Positions 19,441 through 51,964 of a DNA stretch of 64,000 nt are shown here, in pieces (the first letter of the stretch is position 1; every line of letters starts with the position of its first letter). Source of the stretch: a virus; the IMG/VR virus record IMGVR_UViG_3300032897_000002, positions 1 through 64,000 of that record; one strand, written 5' to 3'. Below the pieces are notes generated by a model that had not been told where the DNA came from, searched no databases, and saw only the letters and a program-made list of their open reading frames with translations. Position numbers and translations under genes: made by a program.

Positions 19441-20095
19441 CAGTGTTGTTACTCAGTTGATTACTATATCATCTTTCTTCAACTGAGGTGCGGTCATTTC
19501 TGCCGCACTCTGTTCGTCACCGAACAGCTCAGACTGGATCTTCTGTGTTTCCACAGGCTCACGCACAGTCGTTACGGAACCCAAGCCACGCGAGTTAAGT
19601 TCCTTGACTCGCGCCATCAGAAGTTCGTCCTCGGCACGGTTCGGCCTCATATGCCGACCCCTCTGGGTATGTACCCGACCCTTCAAAAACATGCCGGCCA
19701 GACGTAGATGTTCTGCTTTGGCGACGGCCACGGGCTCGATCAATTGGATATATTTTTTCTGTGCAGCGATAACTCGAATCTGCACAGCCCATGAACCCCG
19801 AAATCCCTTTTCGATATTCGGCTTCGTATGAACCACGCCGAAATAGATGTTCGCCCTTCGCAGAATATCTTGAACCTTCTCGGAGATCAGCGCATTCGTG
19901 CTTGTGACCGGCTGGATGACGAGCCTAATCACGCCGTCACCGCTATTGCGGTAAAGCATGACGCTGCCCTCGCCATCTAGCATCCCAGCCAAATATCCGA
20001 TTTCTTTGTCGCTGATTTCCATTGGTTTCCTCGGAATTATCTCCCCCCGGAGACCTTTCCCGATACAGTGAGCTTTTAGGAGACCTGTTTTACCG
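19441..20095 (-). mobile_element. Group I self-splicing intron (655 nt) in the major capsid gene
   Basis: 5' exon ends in U and the intron ends in G. P1 GGAGGCU/GGUCUCC has the U.G pair at the splice site. P3 GCUCAC/GUGAGC, P7 GACUG/CAGUC, J8/7 AAGAUCCAGUC. Splicing restores the frame ...SAVEA|IELDAF... Confidence 0.88.
19453..20022 (-). CDS. Intron-encoded LAGLIDADG homing endonuclease (single motif)
   Basis: YLAGMLDGEGSV motif; lies inside the intron. Confidence 0.9.
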   Translation of the reverse strand: MEISDKEIGYLAGMLDGEGSVMLYRNSGDGVIRLVIQPVTSTNALISEKVQDILRRANIYFGVVHTKPNIEKGFRGSWAVQIRVIAAQKKYIQLIEPVAVAKAEHLRLAGMFLKGRVHTQRGRHMRPNRAEDELLMARVKELNSRGLGSVTTVREPVETQKIQSELFGDEQSAAEMTAPQLKKDDIVIN

Positions 20096-22613: not shown

Positions 22614-23144
22614 TCACAAACTTCTTAGTTCCAAATACCGCTTGGTTGCGTTGAAATCGTAGCCCCGGCGTGCGCACCATGTCTCGGGGTCTTCCGAGCC
22701 TTTGTCTTTATTGCACGGCTTGCAGGCTGTAAGATAATTACTCGCGTTATTTTTTCCGCCCAGTTCCAACGGAACAAAATGGTCGATGGTCATGAGAGAT
22801 TTTCCCATCTTCGCGCCGCAGTATGCGCACTTGAAGCCGTCAGCCGCCCAGATTCGCTGTTGCACGGAACCGGAAATCTCATAGCGCACCTTGCGCTGGA
22901 AAATCTTCGCTGGGCCGATCAGAATCTCTGGATTATCGCTCCGCTGGATGAAGTCAGACCATTCTTCCACCGTCAACTCATACTCGCTTGTTTTGCGGCA
23001 TTCGAATCCCGGCAACATGAGGATGGCCTTTGCTCCTCCGCCTCCAACCACAAGGCCCTCAATCTTCAGGAGTGATCCGATATCGCCGTACTTCACGGGC
23101 CGATTGCGAAATTCCAAGAGATAAAATCTGTCGTCGCTCGCCAT
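22614..23144 (-). CDS. HNH (McrA-type) nuclease with an uncharacterised N-terminal domain
   Basis: CAYCG...TIDHFVPLELGG.N..SNYLTACKPCNKDK; sandwiched between Y-RNA-like units. Confidence 0.88.
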   Translation of the reverse strand: MASDDRFYLLEFRNRPVKYGDIGSLLKIEGLVVGGGGAKAILMLPGFECRKTSEYELTVEEWSDFIQRSDNPEILIGPAKIFQRKVRYEISGSVQQRIWAADGFKCAYCGAKMGKSLMTIDHFVPLELGGKNNASNYLTACKPCNKDKGSEDPETWCARRGYDFNATKRYLELRSL

Positions 23145-23156
23145 GGTCAATCCTAA

Positions 23157-23664: not shown

Positions 23665-24198
23665 ATGCCCGAAGAAAATCTTACCACAACTCCAGAGATT
23701 TGGAAGCCCGTTGTTGGCTATGAGGGATATTACGAAGTTTCAAACAAGGGAAGGGTGAAGCGCGTTGGGCACCGAAAACATACGCGAATAGGTAGAATTA
23801 TAAAACCGTGGTTAAGCCGTGGATACTGCCAAGTACGATTATCAAGGGACGGAAATTTAATTGCGCGTCTTGCCCATCAACTTGTCATGGAGGCTTTTGT
23901 TGGCCCCCGCCCAGAGAAACATGAAGTAAATCATATCAATGGCATTAAGACAGATAATATATGGCCTGAGAATCTTGAATATGTTACAAAAAGTCAAAAT
24001 CAATTACACGCCTCAGACCTCGGTTTGATGCACCGGGGAGAAGATCACCACAAGGCAAAACTTACAGAGGAGCAGGTTAAAGAAATTATTGTCGCCGAAG
24101 GATCGCATTCGCAAATCGCGATAAAGTATGGCATCAGCCGAGCCATGATTTCATACATTAAACGAGGCAAATCATGGCGTCATATTCCGCGTCCATAG
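23665..24198 (+). CDS. NUMOD4-HNH homing endonuclease
   Basis: EIWKPVVGYEGYYEVSNKGRVK (NUMOD4), AHQLVMEAFVG...VNHINGIKTDN...NLEY (HNH), C-terminal HTH. Confidence 0.92.
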   Translation: MPEENLTTTPEIWKPVVGYEGYYEVSNKGRVKRVGHRKHTRIGRIIKPWLSRGYCQVRLSRDGNLIARLAHQLVMEAFVGPRPEKHEVNHINGIKTDNIWPENLEYVTKSQNQLHASDLGLMHRGEDHHKAKLTEEQVKEIIVAEGSHSQIAIKYGISRAMISYIKRGKSWRHIPRP

Positions 24199-24263: not shown

Positions 24264-25664
24264 TTAGGCCCTCGGTGCTCCTGGTCCGATGCGGCCTGGA
24301 CGCCACGAGACGAGCTTCCCGTTAGCTTTGAGATATCCCCTTCCAGTTATGTACATTAATTGATTGGGATCTTTACTCATATCTAACTCTTCGATTCTGG
24401 GCTTCACCGCAATCGGAATGGGTTTGTTGGGATTCAACCCCCCCCCAACTCGCGGAGCCTGCTGTTGAGGCTGTTGCGGCTGATAGATGGGCTCCTGCGG
24501 GGCCACACGGCGTACCGGAGGCTTCTCTGGGCCGTAGCGAAGCTCAACCACAGCTTTGATGGCGTCTTTCCGCACCTTGTCGATCTGCGGCTTGGCAAAC
24601 CGCGTGATGGTGTCGATGGTGGCCTGACCGCTGTTGGTCTGGCGAAGAAGGTTTTTCAGGCTCGTATCGAAGAATGTCCCCGGCCCCAACCGGCGGGCGA
24701 TCTCAACAATGCTGGCGTTTTCGAGGTCCTCGATGGCCTTGGCCGTGAGGTTGCGCCCCTTCGACCATGTTTGCAGCACCGGCCGCACGGTACTGCGCAT
24801 GTAGCTGTCCAGGTCGCGGCCAACGTGTTGTTCGAGCATCTGGCGCTTCTCGGTGCGGACCTGTTCCTGCTGCTTCTGGAGTTCATTCACGCGGGGGTCT
24901 TTGTAGCGGTTCTTGATCTCGTCATCCATGCCGCGAAGTTTCTTGATCCACTCCTCGACGGCCTGAATCTTCGCGCCCGCCCGCGCTACTCCATCTGCGG
25001 TGCCGGTCTTGAGTTCCTGAAGGGCTTCCGACAACGCTCCCGTAGCGCCCTGGCCGTCCAGCGTGTCCAAGATCGGCCGCATGACGGCGAGGAAGTAGGC
25101 TTGCTGGTCCATTTTCTGGAGGATGCTGAGGGCTTCCGGTACGAGCTTCTTGAACCCCTCGGGGCTGGCTTGGCTCATCTCCTCGATCAGCCGCCCGTCG
25201 CCGTGGTCGAGCATGTCGTCAATGTCGGCCACCCGGTCGCCCAACTTCTGCATCTCCATAAGGCCGTCAAAGCCTCCGAAGGCGTCGATGGTGGCCTGCG
25301 CCCCCCGCGCTTCTTCGACGGTCGGATAGACTTCCGTGAAGCCCTTCCAACGCCCGTAGGCGGCCTGGAGTTCGCGGAGGGCCGATGCGTGCTGAGGCGC
25401 CGTCGTGCGCAGTTCCCTGATGGCCTTATACACATTCGCCGGTAACGGAGGCGTCTCCTCCTGCAAGGGCGATGGCGCTGGCTCGGCCGGTTGCGCACCC
25501 TCCCCTTCTACGGGGGGCATTTCCCCGCCTTCTCCCGGCTGTGGTTCCAGCGGGGCTTCCGTCCCCAGTCCCGTTTCGACCGGAAGTTGCTCTGTGCCGC
25601 CCTCCGGCGCTGCGCCCGTTCCTGAATCTACCAAGCCTTGCAAAGTGTCGATATCGGCTCCCAT
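24264..25664 (-). CDS. Putative capsid scaffolding protein
   Basis: Acidic/Pro-rich N-terminus and helical body; located between portal and capsid. Confidence 0.65.
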   Translation of the reverse strand: MGADIDTLQGLVDSGTGAAPEGGTEQLPVETGLGTEAPLEPQPGEGGEMPPVEGEGAQPAEPAPSPLQEETPPLPANVYKAIRELRTTAPQHASALRELQAAYGRWKGFTEVYPTVEEARGAQATIDAFGGFDGLMEMQKLGDRVADIDDMLDHGDGRLIEEMSQASPEGFKKLVPEALSILQKMDQQAYFLAVMRPILDTLDGQGATGALSEALQELKTGTADGVARAGAKIQAVEEWIKKLRGMDDEIKNRYKDPRVNELQKQQEQVRTEKRQMLEQHVGRDLDSYMRSTVRPVLQTWSKGRNLTAKAIEDLENASIVEIARRLGPGTFFDTSLKNLLRQTNSGQATIDTITRFAKPQIDKVRKDAIKAVVELRYGPEKPPVRRVAPQEPIYQPQQPQQQAPRVGGGLNPNKPIPIAVKPRIEELDMSKDPNQLMYITGRGYLKANGKLVSWRPGRIGPGAPRA

Positions 25665-25690
25665 TTATTAAGCTCCTTTTTATTTTCGGT

Positions 25691-28600
25691 TCAAACTTGT
25701 GGTCCTGGTGCAACAATCGGCATCGGAACGGCGGGTCCGGTCGGATGCTTCGATTTCTCAAGCTCGGCCTGAAATTCGCGGGTCGTTGAAACGTCCGAAC
25801 CCGTCACCGTGGTATCTCCCCGGCGCTGCAACTCCTTCGCCACCGATTCGGCCGGCAGGTCGCTCAGCTTGCCACTGATGTTCATGGGCTTTACAACGGG
25901 CTCGGGCGGAGGCACCTTTGCTTTATGCTCAGAAAAGTGCAGATTAAGGTTGAGGAAAGCTGCCTGTTCCTCGGGACTCCCGTTGGCGAGTTTGCGTCCA
26001 CGCGGGTCGTTGATCACATCGAGACACGCTTCCGCCTCCGACGCATGATCGTCTGTGTCGCGCACTGGGACCGTGGAAACAAGGTCTGGCAGCGCGTTGA
26101 TGGCCGCTTCCATCTGCATAAGGGCCTGTGTCTCCTCGGGGGTTATCACGACGCCCTGCAACATCTTCGCGGCTGCCTGCGCCTTGGCCTGCTCGAAGGC
26201 CATCTGGGCCTGCTGCTTGGCGGGATTGGGAACGGGGCCGCTGGCTAGCAGTACATCCAACTCGCCCATTTGTTTGTCGTAGGCGTCGGCCTCGGAGCAC
26301 TTGAAGTGTCCGATGCGGAACGACTCCATCGCGGCCCGGATATTGGCGACCTTGCTGAGCAGTTTCATGACGAGCGGGTTGGTGACCTGCATCAGCACGC
26401 GGTTCCATGCGGCCTGACGCTGCGCGGGACTCTCGGAGTACCCGGCATCATCCTGCGGGAAGCACAGCACATTACCCTTGAGGTCGTCAATTTCGATATC
26501 GACCGCCTCGCCATTCTTGTCGGTTTGGTGGATGGAGGCATTCCGGCAGCGGGCCGCGAGTTGCACGGCCTGGCGATGGTAATTGCAGGTGGCCATCTTC
26601 ATGGCGTGCCACGGCGTTCCCTGGGTCGCGAGGGCCTGATCGCGCTGGATTTCGAGAGCGACACCGGATGGATTCGCAACGTCTGTATTGGCCGTGGACC
26701 CGAAGAGAGTCGGTAAGGCGTGCACAATCAACTGCGGCAACTGCTCGATGAAGTACATGATTAACTGGATCATGAACGGCTGGCCGGTGGGGGTCGGAAA
26801 CACAAACATGGAGTCGGCTATGGGCTTTCCCGCCGCTGCGCCTTGAAGCTGCCGCGAGTCCACTGGGATGAACGCCCCCGGATTCGAGCCGGTCTTGTTG
26901 AGCGCGTCCACGTCGAACAGCACCGTGTCCACTGCGGTGTGCGGGACGCACTTGGTCATGTAGGCATCGGCCAAATCGAGCCAGTTGTTGAGGCGCCGCT
27001 GGATGGACGTGAGGCTGGACATGAGGGACTTGCGGTTCTGGCCTGTACCCGGAAGGGCCTGGATGAGCGTGAGGTGATCATCCATGCACTCATTGCGGGC
27101 CTCGATGAACGTGTCCCCGGCCATATAGCACTTCACGCCGTCGGGGAACGCATCGAACAGTTCACGCCGCACATCGAGGTCTTCCACTTCCATAAACATC
27201 GCGGGCCGCATCCAGATGCGATGCAGCGTGACATCCTTTACGAGCGAGTCCCCGGTGACGTAGCTCGCTTCGAGCGACAACGACACGTTGATGCGGGCAA
27301 TGCGGTCCAGTTCGATTTCGGCCACGCCGGAACCACCCGGCTTGATCTTGTCGGCTTTCTTGGGGAACATGGCCTTCAGCCGCGCCACATCGAACTCGCG
27401 GGAGACCTTCACGAAATCCATTTCGTCAAGCGATTGCGCGACGATGGGGACCTTCGCCTCTAACTTGCCGCAGACCTCCACGACTTCCTGCCCACGCGGG
27501 ATGCCACGCTTGATGCCGGCCGGTTGAGTGCCGGTGGATTTGGGGAAGATGGGCCGCATGTCGTAGTTGGCGTCCTCTTTCTGCTCCACCACCGCTACGC
27601 CACCCGGAGGCACGTTGGTAATGCCGTAGGGAATCTCAGGGTTCAGAAATTGGCCCACAGAACTAATAACCGAATCATGACAGACGATGGCAAACGGTAG
27701 CCCCGGAGTTCGCAGCAGGTCCAGAATTGCAGAAGCAACGCGCTGATTGAACTCCTCGACATTCTCTCCGCCGGGAGCTTCCTCTTCGCCGGTAAAGATT
27801 TCGCGTATTTCCTCGGCATTTTTTTGCGCATCCTCTCCCGTAAGCGTTCCCAGGTCGAAGGCGGCTAGACGGTCATCAACATCGTAAGGCACCCCAAGGG
27901 CCTGCGAAACGTATTCGGCCGTCTCCACGCTCCGCTGTACGGGGCTGCACACAATGCGGCTGATGTTCTTGCCCTTCAGGAATGCCGCTACCTTCTCGGC
28001 CTCGCGCCGTCCGAGCTTGTTGAGCGGGTCCTGCGACTCGCCGCGCAGCTTGCCCTCAGCGTTCTTTTCGGTCTCGCCGTGGCGCACGATGTAGAGCAGG
28101 GGATTGTTGACGTGCTCTTCGGTTTCGGGCACAACGGGCTCGGCAGGCTCGTTGAGGGGCTCCCGCCCAAAGCGCTGCGCGTCGATAACGTGGTCTGTTA
28201 TCAACACGACCCGGCCATCGGTACAGAGGTAGTTGGCGATCTGCATGTGGGTGCCCAGCAGGTCGTTCTGGCTCTCGAACACGCGGGCATAATTGGACGC
28301 GGCTTCCTTCGCGGTGATGTCGGCATCGTCCTCGGGGTCACGCGCCTGGAACTGCACGCCGGGAATGTCACGCGATAGCGCTGCCGTGATGATCTGCTCG
28401 TAGCAGCCGTAGATGTTGGTCTCGTTGCCCCAGAACTTCTTGTTGCGGGTTGTGCCGCCGATGGTGCCGCTGAAACCGAGGGCTACCCAGCCGCCACCAC
28501 GTCTCGGTAAAAGATATTGATAACCACGGGAATAGAGTCTTTGGGACCAAGCGTCTTCAAACTTCCCATCTGCGCGCGGCCAAGTCGCGCCTTGCGGTTG

Positions 28601-28772
28601 CACCGCACAGGTCTACTAACGTGTTTTCTGCCTTCTCGCTGAGCTTACTTGGCTGATATGGTGACGACCAAGCAGGACTAATTTCGCCCGGTTCAAATTC
28701 TAGGCTAGGATCGCCTTGCGGCCTTTTCTTGGTTTCTTCATCAGTCGAATTGAAGGTAGGGTATGTTGCCAT
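25691..28772 (-). CDS. Portal protein (P22-like) with inserted histidine-phosphatase domain and a +1 frameshift near 28558
   Basis: The 71-aa ORF 28557..28772 (RBS GGAGG) joins ORF 25691..28603 as RRWEV|EDAWSQRLY. Portal-like N.Y..Y...I.AALS...P.VQF.ARDPEDDAD..A.EAA motif. RHG phosphatase insert at about 27545..28100. Confidence 0.75.
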
Positions 28773-28805
28773 CAGATGGTATCCCTCCGATCTCCTGAAA
28801 CTCGC

Positions 28806-29234
28806 TCATTGGATCACTATTGAATCCCTTTGACGCGATTCAAGCAATTTTTCGTGCAACGCTTGGCGGTATGCCAATTTCTCCTTTGGGCAACTCTCTC
28901 GCCGTTGCGTATGGACAACCAAGGTTTCTATGAAATCCAACGCTAGGCCGATCTGTTCTCGTTTTCGAATTGAATGCGGATATATGTCGGCAAGAAATCT
29001 TTTTGCCGAAGTTCCGACAGCTTTTAACTGCCAGCAAGCCGCAGATTTTCTGGGTTGGCGAAGTCTAAATTCTGGGTAGAGTAGCTGAATTGCGGAGAGA
29101 AGCCCTTTGTCGTTTTGGGCTATTTCAACATTCAGTTGGCCGAACGGGGTCGAGGGCTTGATGGTATAGATGCTTACACAGCCTTCGCCATCAAAGAAGC
29201 CTGCGAGCCATTGAGGAGTTATTCTTTCAATCAT
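28806..29234 (-). CDS. Free-standing LAGLIDADG homing endonuclease
   Basis: WLAGFFDGEGCVSI motif; ...PHSIRKREQ. Confidence 0.9.
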   Translation of the reverse strand: MIERITPQWLAGFFDGEGCVSIYTIKPSTPFGQLNVEIAQNDKGLLSAIQLLYPEFRLRQPRKSAACWQLKAVGTSAKRFLADIYPHSIRKREQIGLALDFIETLVVHTQRRESCPKEKLAYRQALHEKLLESRQRDSIVIQ

Positions 29235-29348
29235 TTTGTTGGCTGGCCCCGCCCGGTTAGTGTCTGTGCGGGGCTCCTGCCTCTTTGGCAGTCAGATGTC
29301 CTGCCAAACCGGATACTACTTAAAAATCATTGCAAATGCAAATGCTCC

Positions 29349-29531
29349 TTACTTACCTGCCTTAACTTTCCTGCTGGTGAGACTTTCTTTCGGAAAGTCG
29401 CACCCTCCTATTCCGCCCGGTATTTCTTTGGCGAACCACCTGACGGTAATAGTTCCGAAAGGCTCTTGAATTCTTGTTATCGTCAGAGCCGGACTTCCGC
29501 TCTTCAGGTAAACAACGTCACCGACTTTCAT
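29349..29531 (-). CDS. DUF2158/YodC-like protein
   Basis: MKVGDVVYLKSGSPALTI...VRWF...FP.ESL. Confidence 0.8.
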   Translation of the reverse strand: MKVGDVVYLKSGSPALTITRIQEPFGTITVRWFAKEIPGGIGGCDFPKESLTSRKVKAGK

Positions 29532-29538
29532 TCTCACC

Positions 29539-29727
29539 TCACTTTGAAACATTCCTTGCGAAATTTGCCTGCTTAACCGTGGCCGGGTATTCATGCTCCT
29601 TGTTCGCCATGACGTGGGCCGCGTACTCTTTCGTGCTCATGCCGTGGCGCTTGGCCTTGCGGCCGAACAAACCAACTGTGCCTTTTTCTTCCTGCCGTTT
29701 TACAGCATCTTGTATCCATTTCGCCAT
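29539..29727 (-). CDS. Small basic phage protein (MAKWIQDAVK...)
   Basis: AGGAGG RBS; Lys/Arg-rich. Confidence 0.6.
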   Translation of the reverse strand: MAKWIQDAVKRQEEKGTVGLFGRKAKRHGMSTKEYAAHVMANKEHEYPATVKQANFARNVSK

Positions 29728-29737
29728 GGCGGACCTC

Positions 29738-30594
29738 CTAATTGATACTCCCCTCACTTGTGACCGCCGCTGATTGGGCGCACCCGTCACTCTCGGGCCT
29801 ATCGCAGTCAGAATGAAACACATCTTTCTCTGAACGAAACCAAAGCGGGCCAGACCCGTTCCAGTTATACGTCACTGGCGCGTATCCCCAGGAGAACCTT
29901 TTCCGCACTTGCAGCACTTCGAGAAGGCCCAGCGCTTGAAATTGTCAATGAAATGAATCCGCAAACGCCAGTGCAGAATATGCCATTTCGGATGGCGATA
30001 CCAGGGACGCCGCTCGCGCAAAATCTTGCTCATGATGGCGCAGAAAAAACTCTCCGCGTCCTGCTGACGAAACCACTTGTCCTCTTCGACGGTATTCGGC
30101 TGCGGTGGGTGATACCAGTTGGAATGGTATCCGCTTTTGAAGGCGAGTCTGTGGCGGAAGTTGTCGATGGAATTATGAACCATCTCGGAGGCCCACTTGG
30201 TCGCCTCATCCAGCGTCACAGGTCGCTTTCGCAATCGCCATCTTCGCCAACCCAAGCGGTTCTCCAAGCACATTGAGACGATCAGAAAGGCGCCTCGTAC
30301 CAGCGCTTCACATTGAACTGCGTCCGCATTCTCCTTCGCGTCCAGCGCTGCGAACCAAGGAGTTCTCGCTTCATCTTGCGCGAGGGTTTCTATGATTTCT
30401 CTTTGAATCTGGTTCAACGGGGGATGGAACCAGCCGCAGGAATCATCTGATCGTTGGCCGGGAATATGCCGCTCCGGGTCAATGTGCCAGATCGTGATGA
30501 ATGGAACCCAATAGCGCCAGCGCTTCTCCTTGCCAAAACTGTGCCACTTCCAACGCCACGGAATCACAAAAGCCTGTGTTGATGGGTCGTGCAT
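29738..30594 (-). CDS. Trp/Arg-rich hypothetical protein, frameshifted (-1) near 29900
   Basis: The 0 frame stops at 29872. The -1 frame continues CGK|RFSWGYAPV...FHSDC to TAG at 29738 and completes a CxxC...HxxC site. Confidence 0.55.
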
Positions 30595-30854
30595 CAAACC
30601 TCCGGTGAAACAGCTTTCCAAGATTTTTCAAATACGGCGCGAGCCGCGAGCGACACGACGCCCTGCTCATTAACTACATAGTAATCGTTTTGGTTTGCAC
30701 TAACAGGACATCGCGATAGCACGCTCTGCGGCACCGTCACCTTGCGGTCGTCCTCCAGCAGCAGGGTGACGCCGTTCATTTCATCGTGCGAAACAACGGA
30801 CTTGATACGGAACGCATGAACCCTTGGAAGCCTCTGTTCGAAAACCACGTTCAC
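30594..30854 (-). CDS. Hypothetical protein
   Basis: Tiles the operon; DYYVV...G...S....VFE pattern. Confidence 0.55.
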   Translation of the reverse strand: MNVVFEQRLPRVHAFRIKSVVSHDEMNGVTLLLEDDRKVTVPQSVLSRCPVSANQNDYYVVNEQGVVSLAARAVFEKSWKAVSPEV

Positions 30855-31602
30855 CTCAGTTCTTCAGAATGCCGTGCGGGACTTCGATCACGGCCTTGTT
30901 CAATTCCTGTTCTTTTTTGGCGTTCTCAGCCATCACTGCTTGCATCGTGCCGGCCACAATCGCCTGCGTAACGCATTGCAGCAGAAATTCTCCCGCTTTT
31001 GCGGAGAGAACCTTGGCTTTTATTGCCTCGCGGATATCCTTTTCGTTCTCGCCTATTTCGCGGCACGTCAGGACCATCATCTTGACGGGCTGCATCATCT
31101 GCGGCGGTGCCTCGGAGGGCGGGGCGGGGATTTCGGGGTCGCTCATTATTTCCTCACTTTGGTTTTTGGTATTCGCATGTGCCACACGAAAACTTGGTTG
31201 TGTAGTGGGATTCAGGCTCAAATCTATTGCAACACCCGCGCTCCAGACTGATGCCGCCATTCACACGCACCTTGGAGCACTCGCCATCCTTATGGGCTCC
31301 GACGAGTTCCATATATCCGGCTTCGGAGGCATTCAATCGGGTGTCAGCCATGTCTCTCCGCATCCTTCACTAGAAATTGGCGAACTTCCTTCGGCTCAAG
31401 ATAGTTGGACGGCCTGAAGCCTTCAGCCTTTTCGTTTCGAACTACGATGAGCACGAATGCTCGGCTCACTCCGCCATTGGGTTCTATCAACGGGAAGGCC
31501 GATATGCCGTTGGGGTCTTCATACAGCTTGAAGCCGTGAACCAGCGCCGTGTAGCTTAGAGCCAGCATCAACTCCGACAATTCTTGAAATCGGTTTGGAG
31601 TG

Positions 31603-31842
31603 TCAGCCATTCTGCCTCGCAAAAGATTTTTTCTTGCTTCCGGCTATCCACTTCCCGCGCCCGGCCTTGTGGTCGGACAGTTCGTCCCGGTGCTCAACCT
31701 CTTCGGACCTTATATGGGAAAAAAGCCCAGCCGACCCGGAATCACCCCGCTTGCGGGCCTGCCTGATGCCACGGCTGTAATGGTCGATGGCCTCGCGTTC
31801 GTCGCTGATGAGAGATTCGAGACAACCTTTTTGGCCCATCAT
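31603..31842 (-). CDS. Small half-ferritin/rubrerythrin-like protein
   Basis: DEREAIDHY...LFSHIRSEEVEHRDEL (E...EExxH). Confidence 0.6.
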   Translation of the reverse strand: MMGQKGCLESLISDEREAIDHYSRGIRQARKRGDSGSAGLFSHIRSEEVEHRDELSDHKAGRGKWIAGSKKKSFARQNG

Positions 31843-32092
31843 TCCACCTCCGGCTCGATTTCAAAACTGAAAGGCGTCAGGGGTTCCTTACCCGCCTCGC
31901 ACCAGCGCACGAACTTTCTTGCGATTTCGGGGAGAAGATAGCGCGTTGAAGCAGGGCCGGCCACGATGCAATCCTCTCGCACCATCGGGTTCGGTCCAAG
32001 CACGCGGGAAGCCGCCAGTCCGATAGGGTCGAACATCGAACAGCGCCGATTCTCCCGGCCCCGGCTTATGTCTTCGGCTGTGACGTGGATCG

Positions 32093-32323
32093 TCAATCGC
32101 TCATGCCTCCCCGGACGAAGCCCTTCTTGGGCCTTGGCTTTGCGTGGTACACGAAACTCCCTTTATGCTGCTTAGCGACGACTGAATTAGCCGCCTTGAC
32201 CGCCCGCGCATCATCGCCAGTGGACTCAAGTTCGCTGTTGGCGACGGTCGCCCAGAGCTTCTTCAGCTTTGGAGTGTCGGCCTTATGTGTTTTTTCGGAG
32301 GCGTCACTTGCAATCCACGGCAT
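32093..32323 (-). CDS. ChaB-like small basic protein
   Basis: KKLWATVANS.L...GDDARAVKAANSVV pattern. Confidence 0.5.
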   Translation of the reverse strand: MPWIASDASEKTHKADTPKLKKLWATVANSELESTGDDARAVKAANSVVAKQHKGSFVYHAKPRPKKGFVRGGMSD

Positions 32324-33506
32324 GACTCACCTCACCTTCTTGCCTTTCGTGAGTTGGGATTCGCTGATGGCTTTTTGAAGCAAACCCGGCTCTCGCGGCG
32401 CCTCGTCCTTGGAGAGTTTGCCGATGAACTTCTTTGCCTCGGCTCCGCACATCTTGACCTTCAACTTGACTTCGATGGCGACACCTCCTTCTCAGTCTCC
32501 GGCGTCGGAACCGAAGGCTGCGGAGTTCCCCTGCCCTCTACCCACGGCTTGCGGCTATTGACGGCCTTGATGATGATGCCACCGCGCCGCGTGATGAGGC
32601 AGCCATCGGGGTAGCGCTCCGCAAGTTTCAGAGAGCCGTCCGGGTCGGGCCACACCCCAAGAGCCTGCGGCGGAATCCATGTCGTGGTGACGGTGACGAG
32701 CTTCTCTTTGCGCTTGCGGATGTAACGCATTTTATTCTTGTGCCACTTCCTCTTCGATCTCTGGTTCGATCCTGCGCTTGTCCTCTCTCGCCAGTCTTTC
32801 AGATTCCTTCGGGCCAGTCGGATGCGCTCGACTTCGTGCGTGAGTTTGGATTGCTGGTGGCGGAGTATCAATGCCATGTACCTGTTCAAGCACTTGATGC
32901 GCCCGGAAATATTCAGGATGGACCTGAGTATATTTGAATCCATCGGCGTGTTTTATAACAAGCTGATGCTGCCCGTTTCCCAAAAACCTATAATGATGTT
33001 CAACAACATTTCCATGAAGCCTCATACCTTCTTCATGTGGACTGCCGCCTGGGGCTTTTGCGAAGTCATCCTCTCCCCGCTCCGACAGGCTCTTGTCCTG
33101 CTCCTGCTCGTCCAACCATTGCTGATACTTTCTGCCTTGAATGGCGGTCGGAAATCTTTTCCCATCCTTCGCTACAAATCCCGTAAGGCACCCCCAGCAG
33201 AATATTTCCGAAAGAGGTAGCTTTCAAAATGCCACGACCGCCGCATCTCGCGCTTCTCGGAGGCCGGCAGGAAGCTCAGCAGCGTGCGCCAACTGCGATG
33301 GGTCTTGAAGAAGTGATGGTGATTACGGAAACTCTTTGTCACTCCGGGTCAGCCTCCTGCTCGCTGGTCTGGTACTCCTCGAAGCGTCCCGGCGGATGGC
33401 GCTGCTGGTACGCATCGGCCTTTTCCTTGGTGGTGAATATGCCATCCACGACCCAATGCTCGCTTACCGTCCAACGGCTTAGGATATAGACCTTCATGGT
33501 GGAATC

Positions 33507-34388
33507 CTATTCTTGCTTGGTTTTTGAATCAAGCAATTTTTTGAGCGACTCGACGGCGCACAGGCTGCACAGTGAGAACACGGTGATTTCGCCCGCTGCA
33601 CGCGGCTCCGCTTCGATCTTGAAACCACCCTCGGTCAGCCGCTTCGCGAACTCGTCAATTTCGGATGCGGAGGGCTTCAGCGAGATGGTCAGGCATGGCC
33701 TGCCATGCTCGCAGACGGATTCTCCCAGCCGCGCCTCGCAACTAAACGGCAGAACCAGACGTGCTTCCGCCGCCGCGATCTCTTCCTCGGTGGGGGGATT
33801 TTGCGTACTCCAGAAGAGTCCCTGGTGCGTGTAATTGGCACCGGGGGAGAGCACAAATCCCGCCAGTTGCAACTCTTCCTCCGTCATGTCAAGGTCAAGC
33901 GTAAGATTGTCGGGCCAGCAAAAGTCCATAGCCGCTCGCTTGGCGTCGTAGATGACCAACTCTTTCCCGCTGTCCGTTATCGGACTGAATTCCAGCCGCA
34001 TGATGGGATCGGGGAGGCAGGTTATAAGGTGAAAACGCTCGGACGGTAGGCAGGCCGGAATCTTTGTTTCCGGCAGGAGTCCGCTCTTCTCACGAATGAA
34101 TGCGTGTCGGCCCACGGTGAAGATATAAACATGATTCTGCGACTGGGGAACCTCTGGAGGAGGACTGAGTGAAGGCCAGCATCTACGATTGGCGTCTGCT
34201 TGGAAGCTTTGCTCTTGCTTTTTGATCGCCTCGCTTTTAGGCGCGACGATGCGGGCGTCGATGGAAGCCTGACGCTCTTTTATGATCTCAGGACTGGGCT
34301 TTTTTATTCTAGGGGCGGGGACTATTTTCTTGCCAAAAAACTTACTAAGCCACTGCCTAATCTTTTCGAGCATCTTCGGTCCTTTCAC
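33507..34388 (-). CDS. Hypothetical protein, paralog of 14004..14906
   Basis: Shared motifs with 14004..14906 (see findings). Confidence 0.65.
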   Translation of the reverse strand: MKGPKMLEKIRQWLSKFFGKKIVPAPRIKKPSPEIIKERQASIDARIVAPKSEAIKKQEQSFQADANRRCWPSLSPPPEVPQSQNHVYIFTVGRHAFIREKSGLLPETKIPACLPSERFHLITCLPDPIMRLEFSPITDSGKELVIYDAKRAAMDFCWPDNLTLDLDMTEEELQLAGFVLSPGANYTHQGLFWSTQNPPTEEEIAAAEARLVLPFSCEARLGESVCEHGRPCLTISLKPSASEIDEFAKRLTEGGFKIEAEPRAAGEITVFSLCSLCAVESLKKLLDSKTKQE

Positions 34389-36436: not shown

Positions 36437-36462
36437 GACGGGCTCCTTTCAAGATATTCGAT

Positions 36463-38163: not shown

Positions 38164-38166
38164 CGT

Positions 38167-38910: not shown

Positions 38911-39151
38911 AAGTTTCCTCCTTGCGAATTGCAGCGGATTGGGCCGGAAATGAGTCAGCGGGTTCTTCGGCAATTCAACTTTGACTATAGACACAGCTAC
39001 CCTCACTGGTATAGATTAGAAACCAGCTAGGGCAGCGCTCCGGTTGATTGCCTTCAACCCCTTGCGCGACCACTCCGAGGATTTCCAGTCAAGTGAATCG
39101 TAACAGCTTTCGGGTCACACCGAAAGCTTTTACATTTCAAACTGAACTTTG

Positions 39152-39183
39152 TGCTTGACAAGCAATTATTCGTCAAGCATAAT
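39152..39183 (+). promoter_or_regulatory. Transposase promoter with overlapping palindromic operator
   Basis: TTGACA-17 nt-CATAAT; inverted repeat TGCTTGAC...GTCAAGCA; ATG 7 nt after the -10. Confidence 0.65.
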
Positions 39184-39190
39184 ATTCAGT

Positions 39191-40057
39191 ATGAACCGAC
39201 TACCCATTGAAGACCGCGCACGAATAATTGGAATGTTAATTGAGGGAATGAGCCTCCGCGCCACCAGTCGGCTGGCCGATGTTTCGATTAATACTGTCAC
39301 AAAACTTCTAGTAGAAGTTGGCATCGCATCTGCCGAATATCAGGACCGGACCCTGCGCAAACTCAAGTGCAAAAGGATTCAATGCGACGAGATTTGGGCG
39401 TTTGTCTACGCCAAAGAGAAGAACGTCCCCAGTAAATTGAAAGGCAAGTTTGGCTTCGGAGATGTCTGGACCTGGACAGCGATTGACGCTGACACCAAAC
39501 TGGTTCCCTCCTTCATGGTAGGCAACCGCGACGCGCAGACCGCGAACATCTTCATTGACGATCTCAAAAGCCGACTAGCGAACCGCGTGCAACTCACCAC
39601 CGATGGCCTCAAGGTTTACTTGGAAGCGGTTGAGGGCGCATTCGGAGCTGACATCGACTACGCCCAACTGGTAAAGATTTATGGTGCCACGCAGGAGGAA
39701 GTACGGTACTCGCCTGCCGAATGCTTGGGCTGCGAAACCAAACGAGTCCAGGGCCATCCTGATCCCAAACACATTTCGACAAGTTATGTTGAACGCCAGA
39801 ATCTCACGATGCGAATGGGGATGCGCCGCTTCACTCGCCTGACTAACGCCTTCTCAAAGAAAGTCGAGAACCACGCCTACCAGGTGGCCCTTCACTTCAT
39901 GTACTACAATTTCGCCAGAATCCACCAGACCTTGCGATGCACTCCGGCAATGGAAGCTGGAGTATCCGACCATGTTTGGAGTATCAAGGAAATCGCGGCG
40001 CTCCTGCCAGAGCCGACATTCGGACCGCGCGGACCGTATAGGAAGAGGGATAAATGA
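39191..40057 (+). CDS. IS1-family-like DDE transposase
   Basis: N-terminal HTH (EGMSLRATSRLADVSINTV); IQCDEIWAFV, QLTTDG, STSYVERQNLTMRMGMRRFTRLTNAFSKK. Confidence 0.9.
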   Translation: MNRLPIEDRARIIGMLIEGMSLRATSRLADVSINTVTKLLVEVGIASAEYQDRTLRKLKCKRIQCDEIWAFVYAKEKNVPSKLKGKFGFGDVWTWTAIDADTKLVPSFMVGNRDAQTANIFIDDLKSRLANRVQLTTDGLKVYLEAVEGAFGADIDYAQLVKIYGATQEEVRYSPAECLGCETKRVQGHPDPKHISTSYVERQNLTMRMGMRRFTRLTNAFSKKVENHAYQVALHFMYYNFARIHQTLRCTPAMEAGVSDHVWSIKEIAALLPEPTFGPRGPYRKRDK

Positions 40058-41727: not shown

Positions 41728-42555
41728 TCACTCCTTCCGCTCCTTGAGCATCTGCATCTCAACGAGGCAGTCCAGTTCACCGCGCAGGGCTCCGTCTTGG
41801 TCGGGGCCGGAGTAGCTGAGACATTCTTGGCGCATCTTCTCGGTGCGGTCGAACAGGGACGGCTGTGCTTCCACCAGCGCGATCCGCTCGCGGGCGATGC
41901 GGCAGTATTCCTCGCTGATTTCAAAGCCCAGGAAGTGGCGGGAAGAATGTTTAGCAGCTTGCAGCGTGGTGCCTGACCCCACAAAGCAGTCGAGAACAAC
42001 ACCATCACCGGGAACGCAGACATCGACCAACTCCTGCATCAACTCCGTGGGCTTCTGCACTGGATGCTCCCTTTCCGAAGATTCGGTTGCTGAATAGCGC
42101 AAGATGTCCGAATGTAAATCGCCGTTTCCCTTGGAAAAGGCCCCGGAGTTAGACGCCCAAAGAATCAGTTCAAACTGGTGGCGGAAGATGCGCCCAAGAC
42201 CAACGCGCATTTTGTCCCAAACGAGTGCAACCGAGAAGTCCCACCATCCATAGGCAACTGGATAGAACACTGGATAGGATTCATCGTTACAGAAACAAAG
42301 GAGGTTGCCCTTTGTTTTAAGAACCCGCTTCCACTCTTGGCACCAATCGAAGAAGCACTGACCAAGAATGCTCAAATCTCCCCAGCATCGGCCCCAAGAA
42401 ATACGAGACTGATAATGAGATGCCGGGGCAAAAAACGGCGGGTCAGTTATCACCGCATCTATGCACCGATCCGGCAGCGCCTTCATGAGTTCCAGGCAAT
42501 CCCCGCAGACCACCGAGCAGCAGTCATACGGCCCGAGTTTGCGCCCACAACTCAT
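41728..42555 (-). CDS. N6/N4 DNA methyltransferase (beta class)
   Basis: GDCLELM, VITDPPF, HPVQKP, VLDCFVGSGTT, GFEI; start MSCGRKL after AGGTG. Confidence 0.9.
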   Translation of the reverse strand: MSCGRKLGPYDCCSVVCGDCLELMKALPDRCIDAVITDPPFFAPASHYQSRISWGRCWGDLSILGQCFFDWCQEWKRVLKTKGNLLCFCNDESYPVFYPVAYGWWDFSVALVWDKMRVGLGRIFRHQFELILWASNSGAFSKGNGDLHSDILRYSATESSEREHPVQKPTELMQELVDVCVPGDGVVLDCFVGSGTTLQAAKHSSRHFLGFEISEEYCRIARERIALVEAQPSLFDRTEKMRQECLSYSGPDQDGALRGELDCLVEMQMLKERKE

Positions 42556-43481
42556 CGCTTCACCTGCGGACCGCGCCACAACTCCCGCTGCGAGTCCCAT
42601 CGGTAGCCGAGACGCTCGATACGCTTCTGGGCTTGGACCGCACGCTTGAGCAGGTCTGGCATCGCCAGGGGACCGGCCCCGTTGTGCGGCTGCGCCTTGA
42701 TGTACCGCTCGATCTCGCGCCGGAGGTGCATGAGGGTGGGTTGGCGGGGCATTAAATGTCCTTCCCATCCAGCAGCTTTATCTTGCGCAGTTTCCCGAGG
42801 TAATGCTCCTGACCCACCGTGCAGAATCCCAGTTGAGCCAGAACTGTGCGCAGGCTCTTTGCGGCTATGGTGACCCGACCCCGGATGAACTCAGCGCTTC
42901 CACTCTTTTGATCTCGGCTGAGAACATCTAGGGCATCTCTAGTGGCAGCTTCGACTATAAGCAGTTCACGTTCAATCTCGCCGCGCAGGAAGAACAGGGC
43001 TCTTTCGGACTTCTTGATTCTGGGCATTACTCCATCCCCTCTCGTGCGTGCTCAACGTGAATCGTGCGGACAGCCGGGCACTTGCAGCAGCGCTGAAAGA
43101 CGTGGTGGGCCGGCATGGGCTCATCGGGCGGCGGCTCGTGGTAGTGCCAGCAGTGCGAGCAGGGGTCACGGTGCGTGTCTTTCATGGATCACCTCACTTC
43201 CCCATCCTGACGTAGAGCCGCGCCACAAAGAAGGCGGGCCACATTGGAATACCCAGCAGAGCCGCAAGCAATCGGACTGCAAGGCGCCCCTTGCGGTTGT
43301 CTCGTTCAGCCACGATGATGACGCCTGTCCAGAGGTAGAGGAAGAGCAGGAAGTATCTCACTTCGGCCCCCTTCCGAGCTTGCGCAACTGGCGCTCGACG
43401 TACCAGACGAATAGGGCGGCTTCGAGGCAGATGACCGCAGCGGAGATTAGAAAGGCTTCGATCACGGTTAGGTCCATCGCT

Positions 43482-44030: not shown

Positions 44031-44069
44031 ACCTATACGTATAAAGGCGGGCTGAGTCGATGTCAAGCC

Positions 44070-45668
44070 CTATCTGTTCCCCTCTCGAAACCACTCCGGG
44101 GCGTAATCGACCTCGACCACGTACTTCTTTTCCTTGGCCATGTGCTGCATCAGATACAGGTCTCGCTGGACTGGATCACCGATCAGGGCCGCGTGGGCTT
44201 GGGTCTGAATGTCCTCCGGCATCTCGGCAAAACGCACCGGGCCGGCAAAGGTCAGCGCGAGGGCGTCTCCTTCGTCGGGGGATTTCAGGCCGCGTTTCTT
44301 CATGCTCTCTTTGGACTCCAGAATCAACTTGCCGTTGGCCTTGGAAGCTCCGTAGCCAACCTGGGTCAAGTCCTGCTCCAGGTCGGGGCTGTGCGGGATA
44401 GCGCCTTGTGGCAGCCAGGCCCGCATACGCCACCACATAGCCGCCCGCATGTTCTCGCAGTGTGCCTCTGCGGATGAGCCGCTGAACTGCACTCCCACAA
44501 TCCGCACGCCATGGCCTTTATCGGGCCAACTCTCCACCACCGCCCGCAGGCGGTCCCCGATAGGTCCGCCGATGGAGCCGCCCGTTTCATCAATAAAAAC
44601 CATGTCTGGCCAGCGCTCGCGGATCACGTCAGCTAGGAGCGACACCATAATGCCGGTGTCCCGCGTCTTCTCGCCCGGTACCATCAGCCAGGGAATCGAC
44701 CGCGCATCCTGCCCGCGCCGGAAGGCAATCACGTTGCGGTCGTCGCCGCCCCGCGCCAGGTCCACGCCCATCAACAGCGGGTCAAGGGATTCATCAACGT
44801 GCCGCGTCATGGCGCCATAAACCCGGTCTGAGTCGATAAAGGACGCATCGCCGGCCCGTGGGAACTCACCGCGCACCCGGACGCGCACAAAGTCGCTATC
44901 CTCGCCCCAGTCCTCAACCCATTGTTGGAATTGCTCTTTATTGGTACCGTCAACTGTACGGCTGTCAATCTGATAGGTCTTCCAGCGGTGCGAATGGCGG
45001 CCGAAACACTCACGGAAGCGGCCGGTTGATCTTGAAGGGTTCCCGAAGGCCAGCCAGATTATCTCTGTGCCGGTGTCGGTCTGCGCACCTTCGGCAGCAG
45101 CCCAGATACTATCCGCTATCGCGCTTGCCTCATCGAATACTAGCACGATCCGGCTGCCCTGGTTGTGCATTCCCTGAAAGGCTTCTGAATTGTGCTCCGT
45201 CCACGGCACCAAGTCTGCCCGCCAGTCGGCCGGCGACTCTTTAACGGCTAAAGTGGTGCCGGTCAACGCCATCCAGTGGCTATTGATGGCGCGATTGAGC
45301 CAGATGTTAAGCTCTGGCCGGGTCTTTGTGCGTAGCTGTACCTCAGTGTTGGCGGTGACCGTAGCGCGGGCGCGGGGGCACGTTGACAGGCCCCACAGCA
45401 GCACCATAGAGACTAGGGCAGACTTCCCGATGCCATGACCAGAGCTTACGGCAATGCGGCAGGGCTCGCCGCGCCGGTTCTGGAGATGCCAGGCGATATA
45501 CTGGAGGATTTCACGCTGCCAAGGGCGTGGACCGGGAGCACTTAGCAATTCACCTTGACCCCAGCCAAACGCTAGATGGACATATCGAAGCGGGTCGTAA
45601 GTGCAATAGCCGACTGCCTTTATAAGCTCAAGATCGGCTTCAGTTGCCTGCGGTGAGGGCGCGGACAT
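44070..45668 (-). CDS. terL: Terminase large subunit
   Basis: Walker A SGHGIGKS, Walker B VLVFDEAS, GNP coupling motif, RNase H-like GVDLARGGDD and SPDEGDALALTF. Confidence 0.95.
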   Translation of the reverse strand: MSAPSPQATEADLELIKAVGYCTYDPLRYVHLAFGWGQGELLSAPGPRPWQREILQYIAWHLQNRRGEPCRIAVSSGHGIGKSALVSMVLLWGLSTCPRARATVTANTEVQLRTKTRPELNIWLNRAINSHWMALTGTTLAVKESPADWRADLVPWTEHNSEAFQGMHNQGSRIVLVFDEASAIADSIWAAAEGAQTDTGTEIIWLAFGNPSRSTGRFRECFGRHSHRWKTYQIDSRTVDGTNKEQFQQWVEDWGEDSDFVRVRVRGEFPRAGDASFIDSDRVYGAMTRHVDESLDPLLMGVDLARGGDDRNVIAFRRGQDARSIPWLMVPGEKTRDTGIMVSLLADVIRERWPDMVFIDETGGSIGGPIGDRLRAVVESWPDKGHGVRIVGVQFSGSSAEAHCENMRAAMWWRMRAWLPQGAIPHSPDLEQDLTQVGYGASKANGKLILESKESMKKRGLKSPDEGDALALTFAGPVRFAEMPEDIQTQAHAALIGDPVQRDLYLMQHMAKEKKYVVEVDYAPEWFREGNR

Positions 45669-46347
45669 TGTTCTCTTCGGGGGTTTCCTGCTTAGGCATG
45701 GTTGATAATCGCTGCCGAATGACCGCTAATTGCTCAGCGATAAGAATAGGCCCACCATTAGGCCCGGAGACCTCAACCTTGGTCGGGAACAGCGCCAAAT
45801 GCTTCCCGAGCATCTCAAGCGCTCGCAACCTGTCTGTCAGCTTGAACTTGCGCAACTGACCGAAGCAATGCTTACCGCTGCCGTCCGCCGCGTCTTCGTA
45901 CAGGTTCACAAACTCAAAACCGGCCACTGCATGGGCGCTCAGGTCATCCAGGTCTTTAATGTCCTTCGCGGTGCCTTTTTCGTCAAAGAAATCTCGAACG
46001 TCGTAAGTCGCTGATTTGGCAAGAGCTTGCAGAACGTCGTCGGCCTTCATTTCGATCTTCTTAGCCTGAATCGCCAAAAGTTCATCAATTCTTGCCCGTA
46101 TTTTAGGGGTTTTTAGCAGTTTGGCAGCCGATACCGCCGCAGACCTTGGACTGTACCCGGCCCGAACCGCTGCGAGCATCTTCTTGCGGTCAACGATGTA
46201 CTCACGGCAGAAGCGCTCTTGATTATCAGGGAGTTTCCCGCCCTTCGTCTGGGATGGCCTGCCCTTGGGTACAGTGGCCCCAGGCTGCACTTTCTCGGGT
46301 TGGTGCCCCGCTAATTGTGCGTTGCTGCTTTTCTGATCTTCGAGCAT
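45640..46347 (-). CDS. terS: Terminase small subunit
   Basis: QERFCREYIVD...AAVRAGYS...A.KLLK.P.I...I; DRLRALEMLGKHL.LF...VEVSGPNGGPI. Confidence 0.92.
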   Translation of the reverse strand: MLEDQKSSNAQLAGHQPEKVQPGATVPKGRPSQTKGGKLPDNQERFCREYIVDRKKMLAAVRAGYSPRSAAVSAAKLLKTPKIRARIDELLAIQAKKIEMKADDVLQALAKSATYDVRDFFDEKGTAKDIKDLDDLSAHAVAGFEFVNLYEDAADGSGKHCFGQLRKFKLTDRLRALEMLGKHLALFPTKVEVSGPNGGPILIAEQLAVIRQRLSTMPKQETPEENNVRALTAGN

Positions 46348-51022: not shown

Positions 51023-51964
51023 ATGAGATTCAAGCCAACGAGATGGGTACCGAAAGACTCCGAGACCTTCAACCACCCGGACGGCTTAGGGGTTTGCTAC
51101 CTCTACCCGCTGCGCGATGGGGCGGGGTTGGTCGGCTACGGTGGCAAGCGCAATAACCATGACTTTCACTTCTCGTACAAGAGCCGCGAGAAGGCCTTGG
51201 AGAAGATCAAGGAATACTTCGACAGCCTGTCCGCCTCCGCGAAGTACAAGGCCGACCGCCGCGAGGAGCTACGCAACCGGCAGCCCGACCCGAGCAACCC
51301 CAGCCTAGCCGAGACGGCACAACTGGTTCGTGAGTGCCTCGCGCAAGCCTTCCCGCGTACTAAGTTTTCGGTGCGGTCCGAGTCCTATTCAATGGGGTGC
51401 AGCATTGATGTCTGCTGGACGGACGGCCCGACCGCCAGCCAGGTTAACCCGATCTTGAACGCCTTCGAGCGTTGCGGCTTCGATGGAATGCAGGACCTCA
51501 AAACGTACAACGGCCCGTCCATCTACAAGGGCCGGGTGATGCACTTCGGGGCCGACTACGTACAAGGACAGCGAACCGAGTCCGCCGAACTGCTGCGCGA
51601 GGCCGCCTTGACGGTGGCTTTCGAGTGCGACCTGCCCTTGCTGGTCCTTGGCCCTAACGGTTGCTTCGAGGACGGACAGCACCGCGTTGACTGGGTGACG
51701 TACAAGAAAGATGACGGCTCGGTCGGCTTGTCGCATTGCAGCTGGCGCGGGGAGAACTACGCGCAGTTGATCTACCAAGTGGCGCGGGGCACCTCGAAGG
51801 AAGAAACACAGCCCGGCGTTGAACTGCCGCACCTTCAGGCGAAGGAAGAGAAACCGGCCAGCGATAACGCACGGCTGGCGGGCGCAATCTGGGGCGAGGA
51901 CTCCAAGCAGGCGCGGGAGTTTGAAGCCATCGCCTCGCAGGAGCCCAGCCGCATGGTGAATTGA
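51023..51964 (+). CDS. LPD29 domain-containing protein
   Basis: ETAQLVRECLAQAFPRTKFSVRS..YSMG.SIDV.WTDGP...FDGMQD. Confidence 0.8.
   Translation: MRFKPTRWVPKDSETFNHPDGLGVCYLYPLRDGAGLVGYGGKRNNHDFHFSYKSREKALEKIKEYFDSLSASAKYKADRREELRNRQPDPSNPSLAETAQLVRECLAQAFPRTKFSVRSESYSMGCSIDVCWTDGPTASQVNPILNAFERCGFDGMQDLKTYNGPSIYKGRVMHFGADYVQGQRTESAELLREAALTVAFECDLPLLVLGPNGCFEDGQHRVDWVTYKKDDGSVGLSHCSWRGENYAQLIYQVARGTSKEETQPGVELPHLQAKEEKPASDNARLAGAIWGEDSKQAREFEAIASQEPSRMVN

Follow-up and report, generated by a model that had tools for sequence, protein, structure and literature searches.

A putative histidine phosphatase nested in a podovirus-like portal from an uncultured phage

Portals are viewed as passive but dynamic DNA channels and as assembly nucleators; the portal described here contains an enzyme domain. 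The window, by which we mean the whole stretch of 64,000 nucleotides (nt) that was analysed (positions 1 to 64,000 of the IMG/VR virus record IMGVR_UViG_3300032897_000002), belongs to a source record of 81.5 kb from a wetland metagenome that is 87% complete. Its minus strand, which also holds the terminase genes and the genes adjoining the portal gene, carries P0001, an open reading frame (ORF) of 970 residues at 25691..28603, stop codon included. From the ORF list and the homologues, this ORF was assigned as the main frame of a portal gene with a phosphatase insert. The GTG at 28603 is merely the earliest possible start of the main frame, and the start used by the family lies elsewhere.

The phosphatase domain and its portal-like flanks

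The domain in question covers 190 residues (aa 167-356), translated from 27536..28105; it begins just ahead of the RHG motif and ends past the distal histidine and a final hairpin. Profile and structure matches identified it as a branch-1 histidine phosphatase; the beta-hairpin at its C-terminal end bears a PGG motif. Pfam His_Phos_1 (PF00300) matched aa 170-316 of P0001 with an E value of 1.4e-32 and 113.4 bits against a cut-off of 21.7 (117.2 bits in the whole-record search), and it was the sole domain that Pfam found in the protein. The same stretch was covered by PHROG 12933, a family without a function (E 2.3e-22), and the sequence matches of the domain in PDB were fructose-2,6-bisphosphatase, PhoE and CobC, with E values down to 8e-11. 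As sequence similarities, these matches are far beyond chance.

An AlphaFold2 model of P0001, built on 88 homologues, had a mean predicted local distance difference test (pLDDT) score of 83.5 and a predicted template modelling (pTM) score of 0.69. Residues 167..355 of the model aligned in VIA with the phosphoserine phosphatase 4ij6_B at Z 25.1, with a root-mean-square deviation (rmsd) of 2.2 over 187 residues. The entries 9mmh, 1h2e and 4qih matched the domain at Z 23-24.5, and Z values of 21-25 were obtained with over 30 other phosphatase entries. A virus-only cluster of 207-residue histidine phosphatases in the ESM Atlas fitted residues 165-357 with a template modelling (TM) score of 0.87.

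The catalytic core of branch-1 histidine phosphatases consists of the RHG histidine, two arginines, an acid (glutamate) and a distal histidine, and P0001 contains the complete set. R174-H175-G176, the RHG with the catalytic histidine, is encoded at 28076..28084, R224 of the SP..R motif, the second phosphate-binding arginine, at 27932..27934, E280 of the GGE motif, the putative proton donor, at 27764..27766, and H309 of the CHDS motif, the distal histidine, at 27677..27679. Conservation was counted over 79 long proteins, which gave 80 domain rows. R174, H175, E280 and H309 were invariant (80/80), R224 was kept in 79 and G176 in 78 rows; the exceptions were P0071, which reads RHA, and P0078, where the motif is RHD and R224 is replaced by D. 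The initial annotation had described an in-frame histidine phosphatase domain at 27545-28100, inside a portal, with RHG, SP..R and the distal histidine as its signature. That span falls within the domain as delimited here, its signature residues are all present, with E280 in addition, and the domain stands in frame between two flanks with a portal fold.

The claim of portal sequence on both sides held only at the level of the fold and of distant homologues. Since P0001 lacks a sequence-level portal match of its own, the portal call was based on the fold, the distant homologues and the genome context. Matches of P0001 in a tblastn search of 50,697 phage records were confined to the phosphatase part (aa 169-322, 12 records), and a hidden Markov model (HMM) of 49 insert-less homologues matched nothing in PDB at E values up to 10. 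The indexed search gave 188 metagenomic homologues at E <= 0.001, and the exhaustive search returned 224 cluster representatives at E <= 1e-30. Ten distant homologues were compared with portal families. Two of them, P0196 and P0248, matched phrog_156, ‘portal protein’; with PF16510 (P22_portal), these two passed the cut-off of 26.1 bits (P0196 with 28.9 and P0248 with 26.6 bits), one fell below it and seven had no match. In terms of sequence, the portal family membership of P0001 is transitive.

The fold comparisons extended over the entire region around the domain. In Foldseek, the top portal was that of phage N4 (9lc1_A, E 4e-11), and the portals of SU10 and Pa223 were also matched; in BFVD, annotated portal proteins were found at E values from 8e-16 to 1e-9. 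VIA aligned the model with the portal of Pan3 (9vyf_H) at Z 23.0 and rmsd 4.3 over 366 residues, with GP4 at Z 22.2, with P22 gp1 (8eao_B) at Z 22.1, and with the portals of PaP3, KHP30, Pa223 and SU10 at Z 21-22. These alignments span model residues 6-8 to 718-771, that is, both flanks of the insert, and with Z values of 21-23 to solved portals the flanks did fold as a portal. The structural neighbours of P0001 in the ESM Atlas bear P22_portal, SU10_portal and Head-tail_con, with the portal clusters at TM 0.58-0.65. On the basis of the model, the flanks of the insert are those of a podovirus-type portal.

The N-terminal flank (aa 1-146, 28166..28603) was assigned from the model and the family alignment to the portal wing and ends in a beta-strand at residues 131-140. 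The C-terminal flank (aa 371-970, 25694..27493), as delimited by the model and the portal alignments, comprises the rest of the wing and then helical parts. Its model contains a long helix (529-551), an alpha/beta unit (556-601), a helix (609-627), a low-confidence loop (638-642) and then a helical C-terminal part. The names wing, stem, clip and crown were transferred to the parts of P0001 from the canonical portal layout and would apply by analogy.

The portals of P22 (gp1; 8eao, 9jg6), Pan3 (9vyf), GP4 (8jov), SU10 (7z44) and N4 (9lc1) share the fold of P0001 over residues 7..764. The PaP3 portal (7sz6, 7sya) has the same fold as well, and the Pfam relatives are PF16510 and PF23899 (SU10_portal). 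Like P0001, P22-type portals belong to tailed-phage genomes with small (TerS) and large (TerL) terminase subunits and have a scaffold-like gene next to them. In contrast, the solved portals show no detectable sequence similarity to P0001 or its family profile, and P0001 has about 190 extra residues, the enzyme domain, at a hairpin tip. Judged by their titles, none of the solved portals that were matched is described as enzyme-bearing.

Insertion site and origin of the fusion

The fusion was also found outside the original assembly. A second assembly of the probable source run (a Logan contig of 17,718 nt at depth 19.8) covered 25500-28900, crossing both junctions, with 0 differences and 0 gaps. 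Fragments of the phosphatase part, about 190 nt long and differing at 1-3 positions, occurred in two other wetland studies. Among the matches listed, PF00300 was present in 76 of 120 homologue clusters (JGI, ENA, NCBI and Logan assemblies), and the insert was found in 9 of 80 related IMG/VR loci, which come from nine different data sets. A chimera was excluded.

In insert-less homologues the two portal flanks are joined directly, and the alignment of these uninterrupted relatives with P0001 runs from flank into flank. Among the 88 aligned homologues, 49 carry an insert of 180-219 aa, and the other 39 have 0-79 aa at this place. The insert-less IMG/VR loci have a loop of about 15-64 aa there, and in the most distant, P22_portal-positive members the site is reduced to a tight turn between two strands. 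In the model of P0001, the hairpin strands bounding the insert are residues 131-140 and 371-378. The N-side linker (aa 147-166, 28106..28165) is of low confidence, with a pLDDT of about 50 in the block 151-160, and has a variable acidic loop as its counterpart in the relatives. The C-side linker (aa 357-370, 27494..27535), placed by the alignments and with a pLDDT of about 70, leads into the return strand of the hairpin.

The insertion site was further related to the P22 portal. By way of the alignments of P0248 with PF16510, in which residues 114-264 correspond to profile positions 49-191, and of P0248 with P0001, the site falls near position 130 in the P22_portal profile, which has 594 positions. 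The wing domain of P22 gp1 includes residues 41-59, 64, 191-217 and 303, according to PMC9320234. From this profile position and these wing residues the insert was placed in the wing, where we infer that a beta-hairpin carries it at its tip.

The history of the insert was followed in trees. In a portal-core tree of 88 rows from which the insert columns had been removed (FastTree), the 49 insert-bearing rows formed one side of a branch with a support of 99, corresponding to one change of state. When loci and six distant outgroup portals were included (the window and 40 of the 80 loci, the others having been dropped as duplicates or truncated), the support of the insert clade was 100. Whether the tree was made from the core or from the insert, the window clustered with P0003 and P0006. 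The identity to P0003, its nearest relative, was 57% in the insert and 56% in the core, meaning that the two parts are equally diverged, and the fusion is kept across a clade in which the cores are only about 45% identical. The single clade, the equal divergence and the kept residues are together consistent with an insertion that happened once, long ago, and was then inherited vertically with catalysis under selection.

The six-frame ORFs of all loci were searched with an HMM built from the insert. In 42 of the 80 related loci, an insert-less portal is followed directly downstream by a free-standing phosphatase ORF of 205-245 aa, and one locus has a phosphatase copy about 3 kb upstream of the portal. 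In the sister clade, whose portals show just a short loop where the insert would be, the homologous phosphatase has about 206 aa. The distance from the portal stop to the phosphatase start was 0-13 nt in 12 of 15 non-redundant pairs, and 61, 140 and 687 nt in the others. No second phosphatase was detected with the insert HMM or Pfam in any insert-bearing locus or in the whole record of the window. The three free-standing ORFs that were tested matched His_Phos_1 at E values of about 1e-30 and had no other domain, and full-length free copies matched the insert HMM at E 1e-26 to 1e-39. The free copy of L047 is 30% identical to the insert over 191 aa (E 8e-18). The insert and the free forms have the same catalytic residues and the same C-terminal PGG hairpin. 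A separate observation concerns the spacing in L023/L024, L039-L041, L049, L050, L055-L057 and L064, where 515-783 nt lie between portal and phosphatase and a small inserted gene is possible.

A tree of the phosphatases comprised 86 rows; the 51 inserts formed one clade (97), and 22 of the 23 free forms formed another (96). Inserts and free forms fell together within one 76-row clade without the five outgroups; this branch is non-starred, with a Shimodaira-Hasegawa-like approximate likelihood ratio test (SH-aLRT) value of 91. The five outgroup sequences came from phage-collection records, and the search for free homologues gave seven proteins. Taken together, the nesting in one clade and the adjacent gene in another indicate that portal and phosphatase are linked partners. 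Judging from these sequences, the fused form was most likely derived from the neighbouring gene, and the phosphatase gene of the sister clade is apparently translationally coupled to the portal.

A probable tethered phosphatase and its alternatives

The fold and catalytic set of the insert are those of several small branch-1 phosphatases, namely PspA (4ij5/4ij6, Hydrogenobacter), the riboflavin-pathway HFP (9mmh), PhoE (1h2e/1ebb, Geobacillus), mycobacterial GpgP (4qih/4pz9), CobC (6e4b, 6nru) and TTHB049. The insert aligned with these enzymes at Z 21-25 and rmsd 2.2-3.0 over 166-191 residues, with 19-28% identity, and its size of about 190 aa is comparable to that of the 170-234-residue chains aligned. 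The small branch-1 phosphatases are free enzymes, whereas the insert is nested in a ring-forming structural protein; moreover, its C-terminal hairpin contains PGG, in contrast to the N-A-S of the cellular-type sequences P0263 and P0264. The matched phosphatases use very different phosphoesters and so point to no particular substrate for the insert.

Enzymes coupled to the portal apparatus are known in general. Fusions of 2H phosphoesterase, PBECR RNase, Nudix, InPase and ADP-ribosyltransferase to portal or MuF proteins are presented as head-packaged effectors by Iyer et al. in 2017 (PMC5512222) and 2022 (PMC9503650). The muf/gp7-type genes sit just after the portal gene, and their products bind the portal and can carry effectors, as stated for MuF polymorphic toxins and SPP1 gp7 by Jamet et al. 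2017 (PMC5576092). The portal phosphatase is likewise an accessory enzyme coupled to the portal apparatus, and the free phosphatase of the sister phages occupies the slot where muf genes lie. Pfam detected no MuF domain (PF04233, PF06152 or relatives) in P0001, in the three free phosphatases or in the portals of L047 and L001, and the MuF effectors are consequently an analogy and not a case of membership. Nested in the wing, the portal phosphatase would be non-injectable unless cleaved; the free form of the sister phages is a separate polypeptide that could be stoichiometrically uncoupled or ejected.

The initial annotation had known of no such fusion. For a histidine phosphatase this stood: no histidine phosphatase-portal fusion was found in titles, the opening lines of abstracts and passages of PMC5431838, although supplementary tables could list one, and the main text of PMC5512222 and PMC9503650 contains neither histidine phosphatase, phosphoglycerate mutase nor PGAM. 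It did not extend to enzymes as a class, given the other enzyme-portal and enzyme-MuF fusions in print.

In our reading of the sequences, the insert is probably a portal-tethered accessory phosphatase, present in 12 copies per head, and the partnership between portal and enzyme would have been hard-wired in one clade. The portal of this uncultured podovirus-like phage would hold a complete phosphatase on the tip of a hairpin via two flexible linkers, and portal and phosphatase would be made together and act together at the head. With the enzyme moved into the portal, 12 copies per virion would be carried on the wing of the ring, inside the capsid; this copy number is expected because of what portals are, namely dodecamers. 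As a nested domain cannot leave the ring uncut, the enzyme would most likely act while tethered, either during infection, at the vertex where heads are assembled and packaged in the cell, or within the head. It would be a putative phosphomonoesterase working via a phospho-histidine on H175, and its target could be a small phosphorylated molecule or a phosphoprotein; the initial annotation had considered DNA ends, nucleotides or host defence signals as possible targets. Such a tethered phosphatase suggests a phosphate-removing step, not known to have been described before, tied to head assembly, to packaging or to the earliest infection. The tip of the portal-wing hairpin evidently has room for a folded domain as large as about 21 kDa, which may be useful for the display of cargo on or in phage heads.

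A more specific version, which we consider unlikely, is that the phosphatase serves as a functional component of the finished ring, with twelve active sites at the packaging vertex, inside the head, acting on some phosphorylated target which comes into contact with the portal there. Such targets may be head or packaging proteins phosphorylated by a host defence kinase, or phosphate-carrying groups on the phage DNA or moving with it. If this version were true, this would be the first portal known as an enzyme as well as a channel, and the free gene of the sister phages would encode this device in unfused form, as a protein that docks on the portal. The record of the window contained neither a Pkinase (PF00069) nor an AAA_33 (PF13671) match, a negative that is weak at its 87% completeness.

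Several observations weigh against a tethered accessory phosphatase. P0001 matched no portal family in Pfam at E values up to 1 or in PHROGs at E values up to 0.1, and it is by inference that the insert is placed on the ring's wing, inside the capsid. Phosphatase activity is itself a prediction from sequence and model. The non-starred branch that joins inserts and free forms was drawn with only 12 non-portal-linked sequences for comparison. Furthermore, in 19 of the 80 loci the sequence downstream of the portal, 900 nt or more in each, contained no phosphatase, and 9 contigs stopped too close to the portal to be judged. The whole records of five relatives with none nearby were searched as well: PF00300 was absent in four of them, two of which carry terminal repeats, and the fifth (L069; record G005, 109,250 bp, with terminal repeats) has a His_Phos_1 ORF of 299 aa at 78704-79216, about 70 kb from the portal. 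Because some relatives lack the phosphatase entirely, it was regarded as accessory and not as basic portal machinery. Finally, P0078, with its degenerate motif, and P0065, which has no RHG at the start of its insert, keep a full-length insert; their copies may be inactive or repurposed, and their motifs fit a partly structural role.

A further point against it concerns the window's own copy, which carries a frameshift near its 5' end. The true N-terminus of the portal, as judged from the N-termini of homologues, is a 71-aa ORF in another frame (28557..28772, with ATG at 28772), which is 61% identical to the N-terminus of P0035 (E 2e-19). By reading of the DNA, the frameshift site was located at 28557..28562, GTT then TGA, where the T run 28559-28561 has one T too many for a continuous frame and homology resumes in the +1 frame. 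The flanking motifs are 51 nt apart and in one frame in the relatives, and in the window they are 52 nt apart with a change of frame. The site lies four codons upstream of the intein site of the relatives P0002 and P0037. With a shift past codon 71, the window's gene may not yield a full-length portal. A programmed +1 frameshift was rejected as the main explanation, none of the loci of about 55 relatives having the shift; we take GTT TGA to resemble the prfB shift site. An alternative genetic code was set aside too, since read-through of TGA would only prolong the non-homologous frame. As a side observation, P0044 (960 aa) begins with an unusual N-terminus and could have the shift as well.

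The frameshift in the window may be genuine damage to the gene, a split that is tolerated, or an error, and it leads to the reading that the locus is a dead gene or an artefact, the shift marking a pseudogene in a defective genome or the extra T being a consensus error. We regard this as very improbable. The shift occurs in the window alone among the loci of those relatives, and no obvious ribosome-binding site was seen in the DNA before the GTG at 28603. Yet the second assembly has the same letters, including the shift, at its depth of 19.8; it was made from the same reads, and identical reads behind both assemblies leave a real lesion compatible with them. The 970 codons downstream of the shift are nevertheless open and conserved, and the architecture does not depend on the window's copy.

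The main rival of a tethered phosphatase is that the enzyme is a passenger, placed in the portal by strong late expression and by a hairpin tip that tolerates insertion, with an unrelated job, for example as an auxiliary metabolic phosphatase or a nucleotide or cofactor phosphatase, and that its tethering is meaningless. It accounts well for the hypervariable loop of 0-64 aa that relatives have at the insertion site, for the dispensability of the enzyme to the portal family (the four of five records without PF00300) and for the 109-kb relative whose copy lies far from the portal. However, the phosphatase is tightly linked to one and the same partner in two separate ways, nested in one clade and 0-13 nt downstream in the other (42 of 80 loci), the fusion has been retained while the cores diverged to about 45% identity, and the insert-bearing records have no free second copy, all of which make a passenger rather unlikely. 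Even as a passenger, the enzyme would show clearly that nature can nest a domain inside a ring protein that is essential. It is quite improbable that the fold was recruited to add bulk to the wing, as a decoration or spacer in contact, for instance, with scaffold, capsid or packaged DNA, and that catalysis has become irrelevant. The retention of the full-length insert in P0078 (RHD, D for R224) and in P0065, whose insert begins without RHG, agrees with such a role, as does the P22 wing, the place of scaffold and coat contacts according to PMC9320234, but a purely structural module would not be expected to keep five catalytic residues in 79-80 of 80 rows and in the free forms. Scarcely credible, in our estimate, is a selfish insertion, that is, a mobile intein-like or homing element moving among portal genes. 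True inteins do occur in the family portals P0002, P0023, P0037, P0128 and P0191, and the phage has many homing endonuclease genes; against this, Pfam found no Hint, LAGLIDADG or endonuclease domain in P0001, and the insert occupies a single site, is monophyletic and co-diverges with the core, the window standing with P0003 and P0006 in both trees.

Genomic surroundings

The window is that of a tailed phage, as concluded from its terminase genes. The small subunit (45640..46347) and the large subunit (44070..45668) were found in the profile scan, with matches to Terminase_2 at E 6.1e-31 and to phrog_2 at E 6e-39. Next to the portal, downstream, lies a gene of 466 aa (24264..25664) without a family match, characterized by its position and a C-terminal motif: its C-terminal 42 aa match a 482-aa gene that follows the free phosphatase in L033 (E 4e-8). 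By this similarity it is probably the scaffold-like gene that follows the portal, or portal and phosphatase, in relatives.

The distance between terminase and portal is about 16 kb (28604-44069), which is unusual for a packaging module. This gap contains a DNA methylase (41728..42768), an ORF resembling an insertion sequence (IS) and many ORFs without assignment; the IS-like ORF, on the plus strand at 39149..40057, has matches to an IS1-type DDE transposase and a helix-turn-helix.

Homing-endonuclease-like genes surround the head module. A free-standing LAGLIDADG gene, recognized by its profile match, lies 33 nt upstream of the portal start (28806..29234), and further genes of this kind were found at 23665..24198 (plus strand), 22614..23150 and 19453..20022 (both minus strand), giving two LAGLIDADG and two HNH genes. 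The portals of the family carry inteins with LAGLIDADG or Hom_end matches at two or more sites, near the N-terminus in P0002 and P0037 and in a conserved loop before the crown in P0023.

The only match to the portal family among the genomes of 185,579 species was L087 (JBEKVC010000180.1, 2010 bp), from a Terriglobia metagenome-assembled genome (MAG). It covers query residues 174-968 at 32% identity and is probably a phage contig, which makes it a weak hint of a host. Two homologue clusters bear the names of Terriglobales or Terriglobia MAGs, and one Atlas cluster is mostly Acidobacteriota; contigs with acidobacterial labels may be mis-binned phage, and hence no host is named. Elsewhere in the window, an ORF on the plus strand at 51023..51964 matched LPD29 (large polyvalent protein associated domain 29) at E 1.2e-17.

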